A DNA stretch of 64,000 bases, taken from NCBI RefSeq assembly GCF_009931435.1, contig NZ_CP043414.1; one strand, written 5' to 3'. Positions 6,796 through 14,298 of this stretch are shown in pieces. Positions within the stretch are counted from its first letter, which is position 1. Each line of letters opens with the position of its first letter. Under the pieces are notes generated by a model. It did not search any database. It saw nothing but the letters and a program-made list of their open reading frames with translations, and was not told where the DNA came from. Source of the stretch: Escherichia coli (GTDB lineage: Bacteria; Pseudomonadota; Gammaproteobacteria; Enterobacterales; Enterobacteriaceae). The position numbers and the translations under genes were made by a program.

Positions 6796-7206
6796 ATGGC
6801 TCAGGTTGCCATTTTTAAAGAAATATTCGATCAAGTGCGAAAAGATTTAAACTGTGAATTGTTTTATTCTGAACTAAAACGTCACAATGTCTCACATTAT
6901 ATTTACTATCTAGCCACAGATAATATTCACATTGTGTTAGAAAACGATAACACCGTGTTAATAAAAGGACTTAAAAAGGTTGTAAATGTTAAATTCTCAA
7001 GAAATACGCATCTTATAGAAACGTCCTATGATAGGTTGAAATCAAGAGAAATCACATTTCAGCAATACAGGGAAAATCTTGCTAAAGCAGGAGTTTTCCG
7101 ATGGATTACAAATATCCACGAACATAAAAGATATTACTATACCTTTGATAATTCATTACTATTTACTGAGAGCATTCAGAACACTACACAAATCTTTCCA
7201 CGCTAA
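6796..7206 (+). CDS. ybcV: DUF1398-family prophage protein (YbcV-like)
   Basis: 136 aa from the internal ATG preceded by GGAAGG; the track ORF starts at 6673. Confidence 0.55.
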
Positions 7207-7496
7207 ATCATAACGTCCGGTTTCTTCCGTGTCAGCACCGGGGTGTTGGCATAATACAATACATGTACGCGCTAAACCCTGTGTGCATCGTTTTTAATTA
7301 TTCCCGGACACTCCCGCAGAGAAGTTCCCCGTCAGGGCTGTGGACATAGTTAATCCGGGAATACAATGACGATTCATCGCACCTGGCATACATTAATAAA
7401 TATTAACAATATGAAATTTCAACTCATTGTTTAGGGTTTGTTTAATTTTCTACACATACGATTCTGCGAACTTCAAAAAGCATCGGGAATAACACC

Positions 7497-7790
7497 ATGA
7501 AAAAAATGCTACTCGCTACTGCGCTGGCCCTGCTTATTACAGGATGTGCTCAACAGACATTTACTGTTCAAAACAAACAGACAGCAGTAGCACCAAAGGA
7601 AACCATCACCCATCATTTCTTCGTTTCTGGAATTGGGCAGAAGAAAACTGTCGATGCAGCTAAAATTTGTGGCGGCGCAGAAAATGTTGTTAAAACAGAA
7701 ACCCAGCAAACATTCGTAAATGGATTGCTCGGTTTTATTACTTTAGGCATTTATACTCCGCTGGAAGCGCGTGTGTATTGCTCAAAATAA
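7497..7790 (+). CDS. bor: Bor lipoprotein (serum-resistance outer-membrane lipoprotein)
   Basis: 97 aa, MKKMLLATALALLITGCAQQ lipobox, near-identical to lambda Bor. Confidence 0.95.
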   Translation: MKKMLLATALALLITGCAQQTFTVQNKQTAVAPKETITHHFFVSGIGQKKTVDAAKICGGAENVVKTETQQTFVNGLLGFITLGIYTPLEARVYCSK

Positions 7791-7821
7791 TTGCATGAGT
7801 TGCCCATCGATATGGTCAGCT

Positions 7822-8295
7822 CTATCTGCACTGCTCATTAATATACTTCTGGGTTCCTTCCAGTTGTTTTTGCATAGTGATCAGCCTCTCTCTGAGGGTG
7901 AAATAATCCCGTTCAGCGGTGTCTGCCAGTCGGGGGGAGGCTGCATTATCCACGCCGGAGGCCGTGGTGGCTTCACGCACTGACTGACAGACTGCTTTGA
8001 TGTGCAACCGACGACGACCAGCGGCAACATCATCACGCAGAGCATCATTTTCAGCTTTCGCATCAGCTAACTCCTTCGTGTATTTTGCATCGAGCGCAGC
8101 AACATCACGCTGACGCATCTGCATGTCAGTAATTGCCGCGTTCGCTAGCTTCAGTTCTCTGGCATTTTTGTCGCGCTGGACTTTGTAGGCGATTGCGTTA
8201 TCACGGTAATGATTGACCGCCCATGACAGGCTGACGATGATGCAGATAATCAGAGCGGATATAATCGCGGTTACTCTGCTCACTGTTGCCCCCAC
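7822..8295 (-). CDS. rzpD: Spanin, inner-membrane subunit (Rz)
   Basis: 157 aa, matches lambda Rz over its length. Confidence 0.9.
7881..8063 (-). CDS. rzoD: Spanin, outer-membrane lipoprotein subunit (Rz1), embedded in the +1 frame of Rz
   Basis: 60 aa ORF wholly inside Rz; lipobox VVGCTS; proline-rich C-terminus. Confidence 0.85.
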
Positions 8296-8777
8296 AAACA
8301 GACTTCACGCTCAATCTCACGACGAGTCATCAGGCCTTTCCATTGCTTACCGCCAGCGTATGTCCAGCGACGCAGCTGATCACATGCGCCTTTGATATCG
8401 CCCTGGTTTATTTTGCGAAGAAGCGTCGATGTTCTAAAATTGCCAGCACCCACGTTGTAAACGAATGAGTAAAGAGCGCCGCGCGTTGTTTCCGGTATAT
8501 CGACTTTGATATACGGGTTAATTTGTCTGGCGACAGTGGCAAGGTCTTTATTCAAGAGTGCTTTGCATTCTGCTTTGGTATACGTTTTACCGAGCATGAT
8601 GTCTTTTCCGGTGTGTCCGTGACATACAGTCCATACACCAACAATATCTTTGTATGGTATGTAGCTGACACCTTCCAGACCATCGTTACCACTTGGGCCA
8701 GTGATTAACACTGATGCTATAGCAATTGCTCCGCCACCAATAGCAGCAGCAACGGCTTTTCGTAATGATGGAGGCAT
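8280..8777 (-). CDS. rrrD: SAR endolysin (T4-lysozyme-like, GH24) with N-terminal signal-anchor-release domain
   Basis: 165 aa; Gly/Ala-rich hydrophobic N-terminus followed by a lysozyme-like domain; phage 21 R / RrrD-like. Confidence 0.9.
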
Positions 8778-8992
8778 TATTCACCTCTCGCAGCCTTGCG
8801 CTTATCTTCTTTAATCTTGAAATAAAGGTTTGTCAGGTACGTCAGCAGGCCAAATACCAGGCTACCCAGCACACCTATTGCTGCCCACTGTGAGGGAGTG
8901 ACTTTATCTAGCAGCTGTAAAAACCAGTACCCGGCACTACCTGCTGAGGTGCCATAGGCGACACCCGTTGTTAACTTATCCATGGATTTCAT
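8777..8992 (-). CDS. essD: Pinholin (S21-type holin)
   Basis: 71 aa with two TMDs, immediately upstream of the SAR endolysin. Confidence 0.85.
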
Positions 8993-9115
8993 AACCCCAC
9001 CTCGCAGACAAAGCGGGTGTAAATTGAGGGAATACTACGAAACGTAACAGACTCGGAGTCAGTGAATAACTCAGGTATTGGGTTATCAGCTAATATCGAG
9101 ACTCAAAAAATGGAA

Positions 9116-9137
9116 AAACCCGCTCGACGGCGGGTTT
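9116..9137 (-). terminator. Candidate intrinsic terminator on the minus strand between the porin promoter region and the holin gene
   Basis: 8-bp GC-rich stem (aaacccgc / gcgggttt) followed by a U-rich tract on the minus strand. Confidence 0.3.
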
Positions 9138-9564
9138 AAGCTGTGTGACGAAGTAACCACTCTTAACAGCATAACCAATTTTTTACGTACGTAAACCACT
9201 AAATGATATTTGAGAGAATGCTACCGAGTATTGAAAACACCACTACAAATACATAAGCAAATCTCAACAAATAACCAAAAAATAATTTCCAGTGTTATTT
9301 TTAGCCGGTTTAAATTGAACCTTCAAATTATAGAACACTTATAAATAACAGCCGTTAATATAAATTGGCTAATAGATTTATTTTTATTCAGCCAAGAGCC
9401 ATGAATAGGATTCGATAGAAAAAAGTTCAGATAAAAATAGAGATCTACTTCACAAATCAAACGAGAAACCAAAACTTACATCTTGAAATAATCACATTGA
9501 TTAGATGAATATTTATCGCGCAGTGACATCATTTTTTAATAATAGTTCAAAAAAAGGGCTCACG

Positions 9565-10662
9565 ATGAAAAAATTAACAGTGGCAATTTCTGCTGTAGCT
9601 GCATCAGTACTGATGGCGATGTCTGCTCAGGCAGCTGAAATTTATAATAAAGACAGTAACAAGCTGGATCTGTACGGGAAAGTTAATGCTAAGCACTACT
9701 TCTCCTCTAATGATGCAGATGATGGTGATACTACTTATGCCCGTCTTGGCTTCAAAGGTGAAACCCAAATCAACGATCAACTGACTGGTTTCGGTCAGTG
9801 GGAATATGAATTCAAAGGCAACCGCGCTGAATCTCAAGGTTCCTCCAAAGATAAAACCCGTCTTGCCTTCGCTGGCCTGAAATTCGGTGACTACGGCTCC
9901 ATCGATTACGGCCGTAACTACGGTGTAGCATACGACATCGGTGCGTGGACTGACGTCCTGCCAGAATTCGGTGGTGACACTTGGACTCAAACCGACGTGT
10001 TCATGACTCAACGTGCAACTGGTGTTGCAACCTATCGTAACAACGACTTCTTTGGTCTGGTTGATGGTCTGAACTTTGCTGCTCAGTACCAAGGCAAAAA
10101 CGATCGTAGCGATTTCGATAACTACACTGAAGGTAACGGTGATGGCTTCGGTTTCTCTGCTACCTATGAATACGAAGGATTCGGTATCGGTGCAACTTAT
10201 GCGAAATCTGATCGTACCGACACTCAAGTTAATGCAGGGAAAGTTCTTCCTGAAGTATTTGCTTCCGGTAAAAATGCAGAAGTTTGGGCCGCAGGTCTGA
10301 AATATGACGCTAACAACATTTACCTGGCCACTACCTATTCTGAAACCCAGAATATGACTGTATTTGCTGATCACTTCGTTGCTAATAAAGCCCAAAACTT
10401 CGAAGCTGTTGCACAATATCAGTTCGATTTCGGTCTGCGTCCGTCCGTTGCTTACCTGCAATCTAAAGGTAAGGATCTTGGAGTATGGGGCGATCAGGAC
10501 TTAGTCAAATATGTTGATGTAGGTGCAACCTATTACTTCAACAAAAATATGTCTACTTTCGTTGATTACAAAATCAACCTGCTTGACAAAAATGACTTCA
10601 CTAAAGCACTCGGTGTAAGCACTGATGACATCGTTGCTGTAGGTCTGGTTTACCAGTTCTAA
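9565..10662 (+). CDS. nmpC: Phage-encoded OmpC/OmpF-family general porin (NmpC-like), intact
   Basis: Signal peptide [24 protein letters not shown]-terminal ...VGLVYQF; AGGG SD upstream; no IS interruption. Confidence 0.9.
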
Positions 10663-10800
10663 TCTGATTACGAAAAAGATATGTTGCGGGAGGCGTTGCC
10701 TCCCCAACATATAAGTGGCTCCCTCAAGCCACTTCCTTTAGAAGCACAACCTTGCTTCTAACTATATAAACCTTCTGTTATATATTACCCTTTATTTTTG

Positions 10801-10824
10801 GGGGCGTCTCAACGCCCCATTTTT
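10801..10824 (+). terminator. Rho-independent terminator downstream of the porin gene
   Basis: ggggcg / cgcccc stem followed by a U-rich run. Confidence 0.5.
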
Positions 10825-10851
10825 AATAATTTTTAGTAAACAATTGGCATA

Positions 10852-11235
10852 TTAATTAGAGTTATTAACAACGATATCCATCTCTAACCGGATATCTAAT
10901 GCCATTAACATCCCTTCAATTATGCCCTCAGCCTTCTGTAACCTTTTCCCGATATAACCATCAGAGCAGCAATGCTTACCTGCCAGTGACATGAATGTCA
11001 TACCGACTACATAATAATCTACTAATAAATCGTGCAAATCGCTGTTGTTCTTTTTCAGACGGGCCATGCACCCGCAAATGATCATCGCGTCATCGTCACA
11101 ACATTGCGGGCGAGATTTTACTTTTGAAGTAATTAATCCCTTAAAACCGGCGGCAATGGACGACCAGGTCACATCTTCATGATTATTAGCCGCCCACGCT
11201 CCCCAACGCTCAAGAACCATCTGAATATCACGCAT
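10852..11235 (-). CDS. quuD: Late-gene antiterminator Q (phage 82 / QuuD type)
   Basis: 127 aa from [14 protein letters not shown]; Cys-rich zinc-binding region. Confidence 0.8.
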
Positions 11236-11320
11236 CAACTTACTCCACAAAAATCAGACCAGAACGCCAATTACAAGCAAAAATCAACAAAACAGTATTA
11301 GTTGATTGTTATCTCTGACT

Positions 11321-11458
11321 TCATACTCCTGCTCCTGTCAGGGTTTTGGCGTAATTCTTCAGTATTCGGTAATCGGTCAAAACAGAACCGGGGAAACGAT
11401 ATAAGCGCAGACGCCCCCAGCGGTGGCGAAGAAGTTCTGCCATATTAAACTCAAACAT
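11321..11458 (-). CDS. ylcG: Small prophage protein YlcG-like
   Basis: 45 aa ORF ([22 protein letters not shown]...) not in the ORF track; start overlaps the rusA stop (TGATG). Confidence 0.55.
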   Translation of the reverse strand: MFEFNMAELLRHRWGRLRLYRFPGSVLTDYRILKNYAKTLTGAGV

Positions 11459-11820
11459 CATTCATTCCCCATTTCGGTGATGGTCAGTTCCAGCCTCCCA
11501 CCTTTGGTAACAGGCATCTTCACAACGCGGTAATCAACGACCTGAGCATCATCCAGCCAGAAACCTGCTTTAGTGAGTGCGTCAAAAGCGGCTTTTTGCA
11601 GATTATCCAGGTCACGGCGACGGCGATCCGGCATGTGGCACTCAATGCGGATTTTCACAGGCATAGCCAGGCCGATATCCAGCATTGCGTTTTTAATGAT
11701 TCGGGCGACGTTATCGCGGTATGCCTGCCCCTCTGCGCTGACGTGCGTGCGCCCGCGATTATGGCGGTAATAGCGATTATTGCTCGGAGGCCAGGGTAAT
11801 GTGATGCTGTAGGTATTCAC
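11458..11820 (-). CDS. rusA: Holliday junction resolvase RusA
   Basis: 120 aa, recalled RusA homology. Confidence 0.9.
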
Positions 11821-12107
11821 GCCTTAATAACCCCCTCTTTCAGCCAGATAACCTGTGTTCTCGCCATACCTTCCAGCGCGCATTCTTTTGCATATCCAGC
11901 GTCAACAAAATGCGTGCGGCGGTCGATTTCGTCGTGGCAGGCAGAACATGCAATGGTGGCAATCAGGTCTGGCGGTTTCGTACCGGTGCCGCACAATCCA
12001 GTCAGCCGGATATGTGCCAGTACAGACGTTTCAGGGTTGCCATTACATACGCCAGGGATTCTTACCTGGCATTCCCGACCACGCGCTGCTTTTCTCAAAT
12101 CAGCCAT
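11817..12107 (-). CDS. ybcO: DUF1364-family putative nuclease (YbcO-like)
   Basis: 96 aa from [23 protein letters not shown]; Cys-rich. Confidence 0.75.
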
Positions 12108-12270
12108 GACTCCTCCTTGCTGCCAGTCGCAACCATTTTTTATCAACCAAGCTGGCGGTATATCCGAGCAGTGTTGGTATTTCGGATGGCTTCAGCTCAG
12201 GTTTACGCTTACGACGATTTGGTACTCTGTAGATGTGTCCGTTCATGACACGAATAAGCGGTGTAGCCAT
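12100..12270 (-). CDS. ninE: NinE protein
   Basis: 56 aa from [27 protein letters not shown]. Confidence 0.75.
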   Translation of the reverse strand: MATPLIRVMNGHIYRVPNRRKRKPELKPSEIPTLLGYTASLVDKKWLRLAARRSHG

Positions 12271-12725
12271 TACGCCTCCTGCTTGTCGCGCAGCAGCTGG
12301 AACTCGCAGCTCTGTGGAATAGTCAGGTGGCAACCAATATTCATCGCCCAGGCTTCAACCTTACACAGGAAGACATACATCTCTCCGGTATCAAGATCGG
12401 AGGTATGGCGTAACGACTGGATAGTGGTGATATCACCGGTTACGACATCAACCAGGTCTTTGGTTTCATAACCGAGATATGTGTGTTTGAGAGCATCTTT
12501 TACCCAAGCTGGAGTGGCGAACGTTTTACCCCTGCTGATGAGGTATTCACTGATTTCGCTGTACCACATGTGGCTGAGTGCATTCTGGGAAAGACTGCGT
12601 TTCTCACGCCACGGTTTAAGCACCATGCGAAAGCATTTGCCCTCCTCCAGATAAGGCTGGATCTGCCGACCGATAGCGGTGAAGTTGCCGCGATGTAATT
12701 TGATGCCGTCTTGTGAGAGGTTCAC
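12270..12725 (-). CDS. ybcN: NinB/YbcN-family DNA-binding protein
   Basis: 151 aa, in the nin-region position. Confidence 0.7.
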
Positions 12726-12939
12726 GCTTCCCCTCCGCAGAGGTCAAACGCTAGATGCAAAGAATTGCAGGTGCATTTCTGCATCTGTGAAGGGAGAAGA
12801 GAGTTTGGATTGTATGTGCGCATAAACGTCCCCGTTTAGCGCAGAAGTCACCGGAGTTGTTCAGGCTCCGGTGACATAATTATGCCGTGTTGATTTCCCA
12901 AAATCAAAATCGATAGAATTGCTCCTTCTTAAAACACTT

Positions 12940-13737
12940 TTACTCTCTGGAAGCTTTTCTTATCTCTCTTGGTGTTATATTAAAACGATTATGAAATCTT
13001 TCAGTAAAACGAGAAGGACACTTATAACCATTTTCTCTGGCAATCTCGCTTATAGGTTTTACCGTCGTTTGTATAGCAGACAACGCATTATTTAACCTCA
13101 CATCGTCCAGTATACTTTGGAAACTTACCCCCTCGCTTGCTAGACGGCGATGTAATGTAGAAACAGAAATGTAGAGATATCGAGCAACCTTGTTTGCTGT
13201 CCATTTTGTGCCGGGTTCGGATAGCAGCAGGTTATAACAACGACTTATCAATGATTGTTTACTATATGATAAAAGTAAATGATTAACATGATTCACTCCT
13301 AACGAAAGTAGAACGCCCATTGCTAAGTGCTCCTGAATTTTAGTTGAGAAGCCTCGGGAAACAGATGTTTTTAGTTGCTCCCAACAATATATTAACTCAG
13401 GATTCTGAGGTAAAAAGAAACTTGTTTTGTTACGTATTTGATCAGTTACCGTATAAAGTTTTTGGAAACTCTCAATTAAATCAATGGGTAAGTAAAGCAT
13501 TTCTGCAAGATAAAGCCCTGCTTCAGGATAATTCTCAATATAAAATTCATAACCACAAGGAAATAATATTATTTGATTATTATCAACAGTTAAAGTATGC
13601 GTCTCCCAATTGATAACTTTCTTTCCCTGACGGATACGACACAAAGCTGGCATAAGAGGCTTAACCCTATGAATCTCATGATGTTTATGCATCCGTATTT
13701 CTTCGATCTTTAAGTTAGTCTTACCTCTTGCCAGCAT
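12940..13737 (-). CDS. ybcM: AraC-family transcriptional regulator (YbcM-like)
   Basis: 265 aa; C-terminal AraC HTH; AT-rich codon usage. Confidence 0.8.
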
Positions 13738-13746
13738 ACTCTCACC

Positions 13747-14298
13747 CTACTTTATCTCATAAACTGGTGTTATCTCAGCGGTTGCGATTTTATTAGCATT
13801 AAGCATATAACCAACTAACGCTCCGCTGGAGTTAGAATCTACAGGAATCTTTTCAGTTTTTAGAGCCCATACTTTAAACTGGTAATGATGTGGTTTATCT
13901 CCTTTAGGAGGACATGCGCCACCAAACCCAGCATAGCCAAAATCATTTCGGCCTTGAACAGCACCAGTCGGCAGTTTTGTTCCATCACGTCTCCCTGCAT
14001 CAACGGGCAAATATGTTACTGTTGCTGGAATATTAACAACAGTCCAATGCCACCAACCACTGCCTGTAGGTGCATCTGGATCATATACAGTTACGGCAAA
14101 GCTTTTGGTACCTTCAGGAACACCAGACCAGGTTAATGAGGGCGATGTATTACCACCTTCACACCCAAATCCAGAAAAGACATGAGACGTTGTAAGTTGC
14201 TCTCCTGTTTTTATTTCATTACTAGTGACCTGAAATGCTGCAGCCTGCGCAGAAAATGTTATGAATGCCAATACAGTTGAAACGATAAGTGTTTTCAT
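13747..14298 (-). CDS. ybcL: Periplasmic PEBP/YbhB-family protein (YbcL-like)
   Basis: 183 aa with signal peptide MKTLIVSTVLAFITFSAQAAA. Confidence 0.8.
   Translation of the reverse strand: MKTLIVSTVLAFITFSAQAAAFQVTSNEIKTGEQLTTSHVFSGFGCEGGNTSPSLTWSGVPEGTKSFAVTVYDPDAPTGSGWWHWTVVNIPATVTYLPVDAGRRDGTKLPTGAVQGRNDFGYAGFGGACPPKGDKPHHYQFKVWALKTEKIPVDSNSSGALVGYMLNANKIATAEITPVYEIK

Follow-up and report, generated by a model that had tools for sequence, protein, structure and literature searches.

The prophage locus described here raises the question of where late transcription begins when a porin gene on the opposite strand separates the antiterminator gene Q from the holin gene. It lies in the window, the 64,000-nt stretch of the E. 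coli contig NZ_CP043414.1 (assembly GCF_009931435.1) that was analysed. The Q gene quuD (PF06530 at 10852-11235) and the holin gene essD (PF04971 at 8777-8992) are both on the minus strand and flank a plus-strand porin gene, as the first-pass annotation had already recognised. The sequence identifies the locus as cryptic prophage DLP12 (qsr'). Identity to the DLP12 copy in E. coli ETEC4073 is 100%, with the gene order ybcL..rusA-ylcG-quuD / porin / essD-rrrD-rzpD-bor, and the K-12 copy is the same except for an IS5 in nmpC. The first gene of the late lysis cassette essD-rrrD-rzpD/rzoD is essD (names from RefSeq, for the identical ETEC4073 locus). Of 5426 complete E. coli genomes, 2391 carry the porin module at a query coverage of at least 80%, as do 36 phage records. 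Features of the locus are collected in Table 1.

Table 1. Genes and predicted regulatory features between bor and quuD, in window coordinates.
Feature	Position	Strand	Basis
bor, after Rz in the same prophage	7497-7790	reversed relative to lysis genes	
rzpD, lysis cassette	7822-8295	-	PF03245
rzoD, lysis cassette, paired with rzpD	7881-8063	-	
rrrD, lysis cassette after essD	8280-8777	-	PF00959
essD, S21-type holin/antiholin, 71 aa, begins MKSMDKL	8777-8992	-	PF04971, E=2e-35
Predicted 5' leader of late transcript, +2 to +169, holds terminator	8993-9160	-	start-to-ATG distance
Putative tR'-type intrinsic terminator: AAACCCGC-CGTCGA-GCGGGTTT (9137-9116), U-tract TTTTTCCATTTTTT (9118-9105)	9105-9137	-	scan, 933W homology
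Invariant block GTTAAGAGTGGTTAC spanning predicted start (A at 9161)	9153-9167	-	alignment
pR', predicted sigma-70 late promoter: -35 TTTACG 9195-9190, 16-nt spacer, -10 TATGCT 9173-9168	9168-9195	-	933W homology
nmpC regulatory region and 5' UTR, AT-rich	9196-9564	+	GC 28-30%; PA-2 record J02580
Sigma-E-like motif GAACTA-N16-TCACT (9548-9522), start near 9517 = reconstructed essDp position	9517-9548	-	primers, motif search
nmpC, intact general porin, 365 aa	9565-10662	+	Pfam Porin_1 profile, solved-structure matches, RefSeq bounds
nmpC 3' UTR, stacked stem-loops and terminator, 167 nt	10663-10829	+	folding, conservation
Hairpin 10712-10679, then CTTTTTCG (10678-10671)	10671-10712	-	-25.5 kcal/mol for 71-nt stretch
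nmpC terminator: stem 10801-10818, then ATTTTT, T-run 10820-10824	10801-10824	+	scan and folding
quuD, Q antiterminator, Q21/Q933W family, 127 aa	10852-11235	-	PF06530, E=4e-53

The open reading frame between Q and the holin encodes a complete OmpC-family porin, as first proposed. Porin_1 (PF00267) matches it over the whole model (1-337 of 337, E=4.7e-157), solved OmpC and OmpK36 chains match residues 24-365, up to the C-terminal Phe, with E~1e-137, and RefSeq annotates an identical gene with the same bounds in ETEC4073. The mature chains of the solved porins align from residue 24, and the PA-2 lc record annotates a signal peptide of 23 residues. The signal peptide of NmpC spans residues 1-23 (9565-9633), the mature chain starts with AEIYNK, and the C-terminus (...VYQF) carries the aromatic Phe typical of outer-membrane assembly. 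NmpC is 98.9% identical in amino acid sequence to Lc of phage PA-2, and its flanking genes are the same as in K-12 DLP12 and phage 434B; this near-identity and the opposite-strand site between Q and S-R-Rz place it among the NmpC/Lc phage-borne porins. By identity and position the porin is nmpC/lc, the long-known porin gene of DLP12-type lambdoid prophages, here intact. In strain B^E, nmpC is described as a 'quiescent' porin gene in the title of a 1998 paper by Prilipov. The porin locus is already known and ordinary, and what we correct is its transcription map.

The porin had also been credited with an AT-rich promoter of its own. The region upstream is AT-rich (28% GC at 9200-9500), and its proximal part (9473-9552) is 99-100% conserved among porin modules, but a simple consensus scan upstream of the porin found no sigma-70 promoter, and we infer the promoter itself. 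A PA-2 record from 1986 (J02580) annotates two CRP sites, mapping to ~9140-9160 and ~9436-9456. The first falls in the conserved initial transcribed region of the late promoter described below, and since this sequence is also kept in phages without a porin, a role for that site in porin regulation is doubtful.

Downstream of the porin, the 3' UTR folds with an MFE of -62.9 kcal/mol (z=-10.1) and is 96% conserved. It ends in the porin's own terminator (-14 kcal/mol, z=-4.0), which was as noted in the first reading and which none of 200 shuffles equalled. The minus strand reads CAAAAAT after this hairpin, with no T-run, so the terminator is strand-specific. This site and the minus-strand site before the holin both consist of a stem-loop followed by a U-tract on one strand only, and their opposite strands lack a T-run. 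IpeX is a 167-nt RNA encoded by DLP12; its transcription begins at the porin promoter, and it is released by processing of the phage porin transcript (review PMC12197685). It has been reported to repress host ompC and ompF. The 3' UTR fits IpeX in position and in its 167-nt length, from the stop codon through the terminator. A permissive-threshold Rfam search of 7000-13000 returned no match, either to IpeX or to a StxS-like RNA, and the K-12 RefSeq record carries no ipeX annotation. On the minus strand of the same region, a hairpin at 10712-10679 went unreported by the terminator scan, probably because of a bulge in its stem. More speculatively, this could be a terminator for transcription leaving quuD, just ahead of antisense entry into nmpC.

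Comparison with Stx phages points to a late promoter on the far side of the porin. In a pairwise comparison, 83 nt of the minus strand, 9196-9114, aligned with Stx2 phage II, 933W and Sakai Sp5 at 77% identity (E=2e-12). The homologous segment of the Stx phages starts 14 nt ahead of the Q stop and is labelled pR', qut and terminator in the GenBank record of 933W. The 28-nt 'pR' putative late promoter' within it, TTTACG-N16-TATCAT in 933W (NC_000924 20666-20693), is the counterpart of 9168-9195 in the alignment. For Sp5, Sy et al. used dRNA-seq to map the pR' start and Term-seq to map the 3' end at tR', with 258 nt between the two (PMC7547250). After conversion to NC_002695.2 coordinates, the start coincides with the A in TATCATgataagA-GTGG, 7 nt past the -10, and the 3' end with the final T of the tR' U-tract. 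The equivalent of the mapped A is present at 9161, 169 nt from the essD ATG at 8992. The core TAAGAGTGGTTAC is identical in six of six diverse phages aligned, whatever their upstream sequence, and 100% conserved in the porin modules. Across eight porin modules, conservation is 100% for the promoter and for +1 to +24 and 98% for the leader, compared with 89% for the porin coding sequence; just upstream of 9195 conservation falls to 81-90%, a drop that marks a module boundary. The -10 and -35 are only moderate consensus matches and lie below promoter-scan thresholds. By homology, the late promoter is placed between porin and holin at 9195-9161, with a start at ~9161, firing away from the porin. 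The invariant block GTTAAGAGTGGTTAC around the predicted start is a candidate Q-loading or sigma-dependent pause region, in which neither a -10-like pause element nor a Q21-type 8-bp direct repeat could be assigned.

The minus-strand hairpin at 9137-9116 (-12.0 kcal/mol) lies at +25 to +46 of the predicted late transcript, with the U-tract extending to +57, and RNA terminated here would be ~48-57 nt long. The raw terminator scan is non-significant by itself (3 sites found, 2.1 expected), and the folding energy of the 62-nt stretch around the hairpin is unremarkable (z=-1.4). What raises the site above chance is conservation: it is 98.5-100% identical in eight other porin-carrying phages and retained in distant Stx phages, being nearly invariant across six diverse phages. 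No covariation supporting the hairpin was seen across the aligned phages, the stems being conserved rather than compensated. In the 933W record the homologous hairpin is annotated as a 'possible rho-independent terminator' (NC_000924 20726-20748), and the idea that the hairpin is a tR'-like element has held up well. It is not a distant one, as had been suggested, given its place early in the late transcript, and the further suggestion that it shields the lysis genes from porin-promoter activity fails since the porin promoter fires in the opposite direction. In Sakai the pR' transcript is 258 nt long and extends beyond the homologous first hairpin (PMC7547250), which therefore stops transcription incompletely in the Stx phage. 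The supplement of a K-12 Term-seq study (PMC7815308) contains no transcript end near 577,229-577,285; the K-12 equivalent of 9161 is at about 577,229 on the plus strand.

Two parts of a Q-dependent late cassette, a Q of PF06530 and a late promoter with a close intrinsic terminator upstream of the late genes, can therefore be recognised by homology or sequence. A departure is that Q is not directly followed by the pR' unit, the distance from the Q stop (10852) to the predicted start being 1.69 kb. The reversed porin cassette fills this distance, and the departure concerns layout, not mechanism. We propose that nmpC is a self-contained lysogenic-conversion cassette, made up of a regulatory region, coding sequence, IpeX-bearing 3' UTR and terminator, which was inserted in reverse between the Q gene and pR' of a DLP12-type prophage. 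It would be expected to be transcribed independently in the lysogen, and its terminator would keep porin transcription from entering Q in antisense. The late operon would begin downstream of the cassette, at a sigma-70 pR' firing toward essD. Without Q, transcription would end at the hairpin and U-tract, whereas loading of QuuD near the start would let RNA polymerase continue into essD-rrrD-rzpD. With pR' downstream of the cassette, Q-dependent late transcription would not cross the porin, and only early-operon read-through out of Q could do so. We put the probability of this explanation as a whole at roughly 80%; late phage transcription most likely starts beyond the porin and does not run through it.

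A second candidate promoter lies in the same spacer. Citing Toba 2013 and Rueggeberg 2015, PMC7918800 describes the SRRz operon as controlled by RpoE and by a Q-type antiterminator; its regulatory region was cloned there as -121..+650 in the numbering of Rueggeberg 2015. The primers Pdlp12Fw/Rv of that study map to 9638-8868, placing +1 at ~9517, some 355 nt upstream of 9161. The lysis cassette might then be driven mainly by this RpoE-dependent essDp, with QuuD acting there, the hairpin at about +380 to +400 and pR' vestigial, and a sigma-E-like motif is indeed present at 9548-9522, in the stretch conserved at 99-100%. However, the same stretch is the promoter-proximal region and 5' UTR of nmpC, so that its conservation does not discriminate, and the cloned fragment includes the pR' homologue, so that reporter data do not separate the two promoters. 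Q proteins are known to load next to a promoter-proximal pause that depends on sigma-70 (bioRxiv 10.1101/651190), and the element common to phages with a 78-81% identical Q is the 9195-9105 block, not 9517. Porin-less phages that carry the block cannot have the 9517 motif, yet they must express their late genes. We therefore regard a leading role for essDp as unlikely. Both essDp and pR' lie between porin and holin, and neither would send late transcription through the body of the porin gene.

The layout assumed in the first-pass annotation, in which the late promoter adjoins Q as it does in lambda, 933W and PhiR5_1, late transcription crosses the porin cassette in antisense and 9137-9116 acts as a distant terminator before the holin, is very improbable here, although plausible in some relatives such as phage 1H12: scan and comparison found nothing promoter-like and no pR' homology on the minus strand from the Q stop to the porin stop (10851-10663), what immediately follows the Q stop is the porin terminator and IpeX hairpins read on the complementary strand, the conserved pR' block occurs in a single copy in the 64-kb window, at 9195-9105, and in related phages it keeps its place beside the late genes, the variable part being the insert on its Q side.

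The variable insert was surveyed at 120 loci among the matches listed, including 95 viral loci with a recognisable Q. Among these matches, Q lies upstream of the block on the same strand in all 95; it abuts the block (8-48 nt) in 20 and is separated from it by 626-3017 nt in the other 75. In 64 of the 75 insert loci among the matches listed, all cargo ORFs lie on the opposite strand, and 30 of these 64 carry the porin, which together with IpeX is the commonest occupant of the gap. Other opposite-strand cargo in the listed matches includes Kiwa and further defence-like genes, and the gap is also occupied by PDC-M53A, PDC-M68A/HNH, KAP NTPase, and GmrSD-like and methyltransferase genes. In a live phage, the module works as a late-control unit despite 1.2 kb extra between Q and holin. 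A different arrangement is seen in phage 1H12, with a Q identity of 87.5% over residues 1-120: directly after Q there is another promoter-like sequence with a strong plus-strand terminator, and a reversed lipocalin gene (blc) lies beyond. Antisense late transcription of the kind first suggested for the porin may thus exist in some relatives.

The survey suggests that the gap between Q stop and pR' is a general insertion hot spot for opposite-strand cargo in phages of the Q21/Q933W family, a generalisation which, together with its corollary for DLP12, we hold at even odds. Cargo in this position would lie outside the early and late operons and be expressed on its own terms in the lysogen. As a corollary, the Q-responsive lysis promoter of DLP12 may be the sigma-70 pR' homologue at 9195-9161, and not, or not only, the published sigma-E promoter. 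This pR' would constitutively yield a terminated ~50-nt RNA, comparable in origin to StxS and to the 6S RNA of lambda.

How the porin came to its position was also considered from the Q side. QuuD is 78-81% identical to Q of Stx phages, and Q933W runs on for 24 residues where QuuD is shorter. Insertion of the porin into the 3' end of Q was considered, and a truncation of QuuD is unproven: the tails past RLEMD differ in every Q compared, which indicates a module boundary rather than proof of truncation. The sequence at 9200-9181 (agtggtttacgtacgTAA) briefly resembles the 933W Q stop region and, while too short for proof, is consistent with an ancestral -35 overlapping the end of Q.

NmpC is a textbook phage-borne porin that alters the host outer membrane, and IpeX reportedly lowers host OmpC and OmpF, which is relevant to phage receptor availability and permeability. 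What is added here is the corrected map, in which late promoter and terminator would move together with the lysis genes, and the porin occupies the gap between Q and promoter. Studies of the DLP12 lysis cassette in biofilm and vesicle production clone the whole nmpC-essD spacer as 'the promoter', and this spacer has two candidate promoters. The slot may also be of wider interest as a place where defence and conversion genes accumulate in Stx-type and related prophages.

We finally compared the locus with known systems. NmpC of DLP12 (qsr') and Lc ('protein 2') of lambdoid phage PA-2 represent the same gene in the same place, with the flanks Q / reversed porin / S R Rz. In K-12, IS5 splits nmpC after codon 346, and in the B-strain derivative B-ZidR an IS1 lies in the porin gene, whereas the present copy is intact; apart from these interruptions nothing differs. 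The predicted RNA from 10663-10829, highly structured, fits IpeX in its 167-nt length and its origin in the porin transcript, and no difference was seen except that IS5 separates IpeX from the nmpC promoter in K-12, while the transcript would be continuous here. Q21 (6P18, 6JNX) belongs to the same Pfam family as QuuD but is only distantly similar (E=8e-7 over residues 8-87) and longer, with 162 residues compared to 127. Q21 binds a DNA element by the promoter, is loaded onto sigma-70-paused RNA polymerase, narrows the RNA exit channel and blocks terminator hairpins (bioRxiv 10.1101/651190). This mechanism is expected to be common to QuuD, with the invariant block as a candidate for its Q-binding and pause elements. 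The pR'-qut-tR' region of the Stx phages 933W and Sakai Sp5, the source of StxS, has its -35, -10, start region, first hairpin and Q family in common with the present locus. In those phages pR' reaches into the end of Q, and the StxS RNA runs to a second terminator 258 nt downstream; in the present locus Q and promoter are 1.69 kb apart with the reversed porin between them, and the first hairpin is the sole terminator before the holin, with no StxS-like 3' part. Like the porin, the lambda-type morons bor and lom and the Stx genes are accessory genes with their own signals in the lambdoid late region. However, stx is a Q-dependent gene of the late strand, downstream of pR', whereas the porin is found upstream of pR', on the opposite strand and outside both operons.

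The layout of the locus was taken from the ORF list and Pfam scans of the window (see table). As the first-pass annotation had proposed, a complete phage-borne porin of 365 residues, covering the full PF00267 model, lies between Q and the holin, both on the minus strand. The locus is the long-known nmpC/lc porin moron of DLP12/PA-2-type prophages, here intact. Over 8700-11300 its identity to the cryptic prophage DLP12 in E. coli ETEC4073, where the RefSeq gene names are quuD, porin, essD and rrrD, is 100%, and the porin shares 98.9% protein identity with Lc of the lambdoid phage PA-2, a sequence dating from 1986. The K-12 MG1655 copy of nmpC is interrupted by IS5. Of 5426 complete E. coli genomes, 2391 have the Q-porin-holin-lysozyme module at a query coverage of at least 80%, as do 36 phage records. 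The window's ybcL (13747-14298) is intact, while IS3 interrupts it in the otherwise identical ETEC4073 locus, so the source of the window is another, closely related strain.

Genes and predicted late-control elements of the porin locus, in window coordinates unless marked as positions on the predicted late transcript
Feature	Position	Strand	Basis
rusA	11458-11820	-	PF05866
ylcG	11321-11461	-	ORF list; RefSeq name
Q antiterminator (quuD)	10852-11235	-	PF06530, E=4e-53
Porin, 365 aa	9565-10662	+	PF00267 full model, E=4.7e-157
Predicted pR' -35, TTTACG	9195-9190	-	same arrangement as Sp5/933W
Predicted pR' spacer, 16 nt	between -35 and -10	-	same arrangement as Sp5/933W
Predicted pR' -10, TATGCT	9173-9168	-	same arrangement as Sp5/933W
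Predicted late start, equivalent A	9161	-	same arrangement as Sp5/933W
Hairpin	+25 to +46 of predicted late transcript	-	same arrangement as Sp5/933W
essD ATG	+170 of predicted late transcript	-	same arrangement as Sp5/933W
S21-type holin (essD)	8777-8992	-	PF04971
Endolysin	8280-8777	-	PF00959
Rz/Rz1	7822-8295	-	PF03245 (Rz); Rz1 = rzoD, ORF 7881-8063
bor	7497-7790	+	PF06291

QuuD is a Q21/Q933W-family protein (PF06530): it is 78-81% identical to the Q proteins of Stx phages, and its resemblance to the solved Q21, though weak, is significant (E=8e-7). A comparison of the Q-to-holin region against what lies downstream of Q in one 933W-type phage gave a single match besides the Q gene: minus-strand segment 9196-9114 (83 nt at 77%), whose counterpart starts 14 nt ahead of the Q stop codon. 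The match was found again in 933W, Sakai Sp5 and ~280 Stx phage records, and in the 933W record precisely this stretch carries the annotations pR' (TTTACG-N16-TATCAT), qut and a 'possible rho-independent terminator'. The Sp5 pR' start and tR' end have been mapped by dRNA-seq and Term-seq, respectively, 258 nt apart (Sy et al., PMC7547250). With an offset of +142 to fit the current Sakai record, the start falls on an A seven bases past TATCAT, and the 3' end coincides with the final T in the U-tract of tR'. Judged from this homology, Q-dependent late transcription most likely starts near 9161 and heads away from the porin, with no antisense crossing. The first-pass annotation had it running antisense through the porin gene, which is not borne out by a pR' homologue (9195-9161) that lies between porin and holin and would fire away from the former.

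The core of this element, TAAGAGTGGTTAC, and its hairpin are invariant or nearly so in six diverse phages, regardless of the upstream sequence. In eight other porin-carrying phages, identity is 100% across the promoter core and +1 to +24, 98.5% in the hairpin, 89% in the porin CDS and 81-90% in the spacer directly upstream of the -35 (9196-9400), a drop that places a module boundary exactly at the -35. The pR' block is present in the window as a single copy, and neither a scan nor the comparison found promoter-like or pR'-like sequence on the minus strand from the Q stop to the porin stop. No -10-like pause element and no 8-bp direct repeat of the Q21 kind could be assigned as pause or Q-binding element at the predicted pR'.

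A second candidate start has to be considered. An RpoE-dependent lysis-cassette promoter is attributed to Rueggeberg 2015 in PMC7918800, which clones -121 to +650. The primers of that study map to 9638-8868, which with these labels puts the published start near 9517. A sigma-E-like GAACTA-N16-TCACT is found on the minus strand at 9517-9548, overlapping the nmpC 5' region; its position is that of the published essDp, as far as this can be rebuilt from the primer sequences. The lysis-cassette leader may carry two promoters, ~355 nt apart. Since the cloned fragment also holds the pR' homologue, such constructs cannot tell the two apart. As the two candidate starts are both located between porin and holin, the conclusion on antisense transcription stands either way.

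The minus-strand hairpin before the holin (9137-9116) reads AAACCCGC-CGTCGA-GCGGGTTT, then TTTTTCCATTTTTT. It had been suggested to be either a distant tR'-like element or an insulator of the lysis genes from the porin promoter. Homology to the 933W terminator upholds its tR'-type nature, but it is promoter-proximal rather than distant; it cannot be such an insulator, as the porin promoter points the other way. The earlier transcriptional interpretation was thus mostly wrong, with the tR' idea right in kind. A terminator scan returned 3 hits vs. 2.1 expected, a count by itself no better than chance, and the case for the hairpin rests on conservation. The homologous first hairpin of Sakai lets enough transcription pass to yield a 258-nt RNA (PMC7547250). 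At +23 to +50, the StxS precursor RNA of Sakai Sp5 (L005 870-893) and 933W (L006 762-784) has a homologue of the DLP12 terminator, a terminator-like hairpin plus a 7-T run; a ~50-nt product there would fall outside the size ranges of the published Northern and Term-seq and be missed.

At the other end of the porin, a 7-bp GC-rich stem (10801-10818, plus strand) followed by ATTTTT (-14 kcal/mol, z=-4.0) has A's after the stem on the opposite strand. It is thus the porin's own, strand-specific terminator, as had been proposed. The porin promoter was not located by a consensus scan of the region. The 167 nt from porin stop through terminator form a row of stable stem-loops (-62.9 kcal/mol, z=-10.1), and their position and size fit the description of IpeX, a 167-nt DLP12 RNA that is part of the porin transcript and made from the porin promoter (PMC12197685), reported to repress ompC and ompF (PMC5069750; PMC3333887). 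Rfam has no model matching this region. Antisense entry into the porin could, we infer, come from early-operon read-through out of Q. On the minus strand, 10671-10712 holds one IpeX hairpin (10712-10679) with CTTTTTCG after it, immediately ahead of the porin stop codon. It may terminate transcripts coming out of quuD before such entry into nmpC; it is missing from the terminator scan output, probably because its stem is bulged.

Within the module, conservation is lowest in the porin CDS (89% nucleotide identity, against 97-100% in Q, the holin, lysozyme and pR'). Its amino acid differences group at residues ~182-190, 219-233, 268-272 and 340-351, probably surface loops, and two length classes occur, 365 and 360 aa.

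The DLP12 module is a working late-control unit that tolerates extra DNA between Q and holin. We found the pR'-terminator block (window 9195-9105) in at least 120 loci of a redundant sample of viral contigs. Among the matches listed, to which all the following counts refer, 95 have a recognisable Q, always in the orientation of the block and upstream of it. In 20 of these loci 8-48 nt separate the Q stop from the block; in the other 75 the distance is 626-3017 nt. A porin, always reversed, fills 30 of these 75; the others hold opposite-strand-only (34), mixed (4) or same-strand-only cargo (7), so that opposite-strand-only cargo, porin included, accounts for 64/75. The window counterpart of this slot is 9196-10851, and the loci are L019-L138 (viral contigs) with L009 and L011. 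In PhiR5_1 the block comes directly after Q; a single reversed gene separates the two in PhiR55_1, and two do so in vB_EcoS-569R4. Non-porin cargo includes Kiwa (KwaA/KwaB; KwaB E=2e-150), PDC-M53A, PDC-M68A/HNH protein, a KAP NTPase, a GmrSD-like protein (GmrSD_N) with a C5-methyltransferase, NA37 and DUF6731 proteins, and a lipoprotein. The porin thus sits in a Q-pR' slot where reversed accessory genes are often found, and the gap looks like a hot spot for defence and conversion genes. The pR' position and this slot are modest additions to a known porin.

In phage 1H12 (L004 3879-4010), Q is 87.5% identical to QuuD over residues 1-120, and the DLP12/933W pR' block is absent from the locus. 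This Q is immediately followed by promoter-like sequence of another kind and by a strong terminator (GCCAGCCTCCCCAAAGGCTGG, then T8); next come a reversed lipocalin gene (blc), a 2-thiouracil desulfurase-like gene, an AraC-type gene and the holin. With promoter-like sequence next to Q and blc reversed, some relatives may thus have the antisense layout. In phage 434B (L001 6255-7214), the late-control region of phage 434 itself has a reversed gene for an LpxR-like outer-membrane lipid A deacylase adjoining what remains of the 434 Q gene, another reversed outer-membrane cargo gene beside Q.
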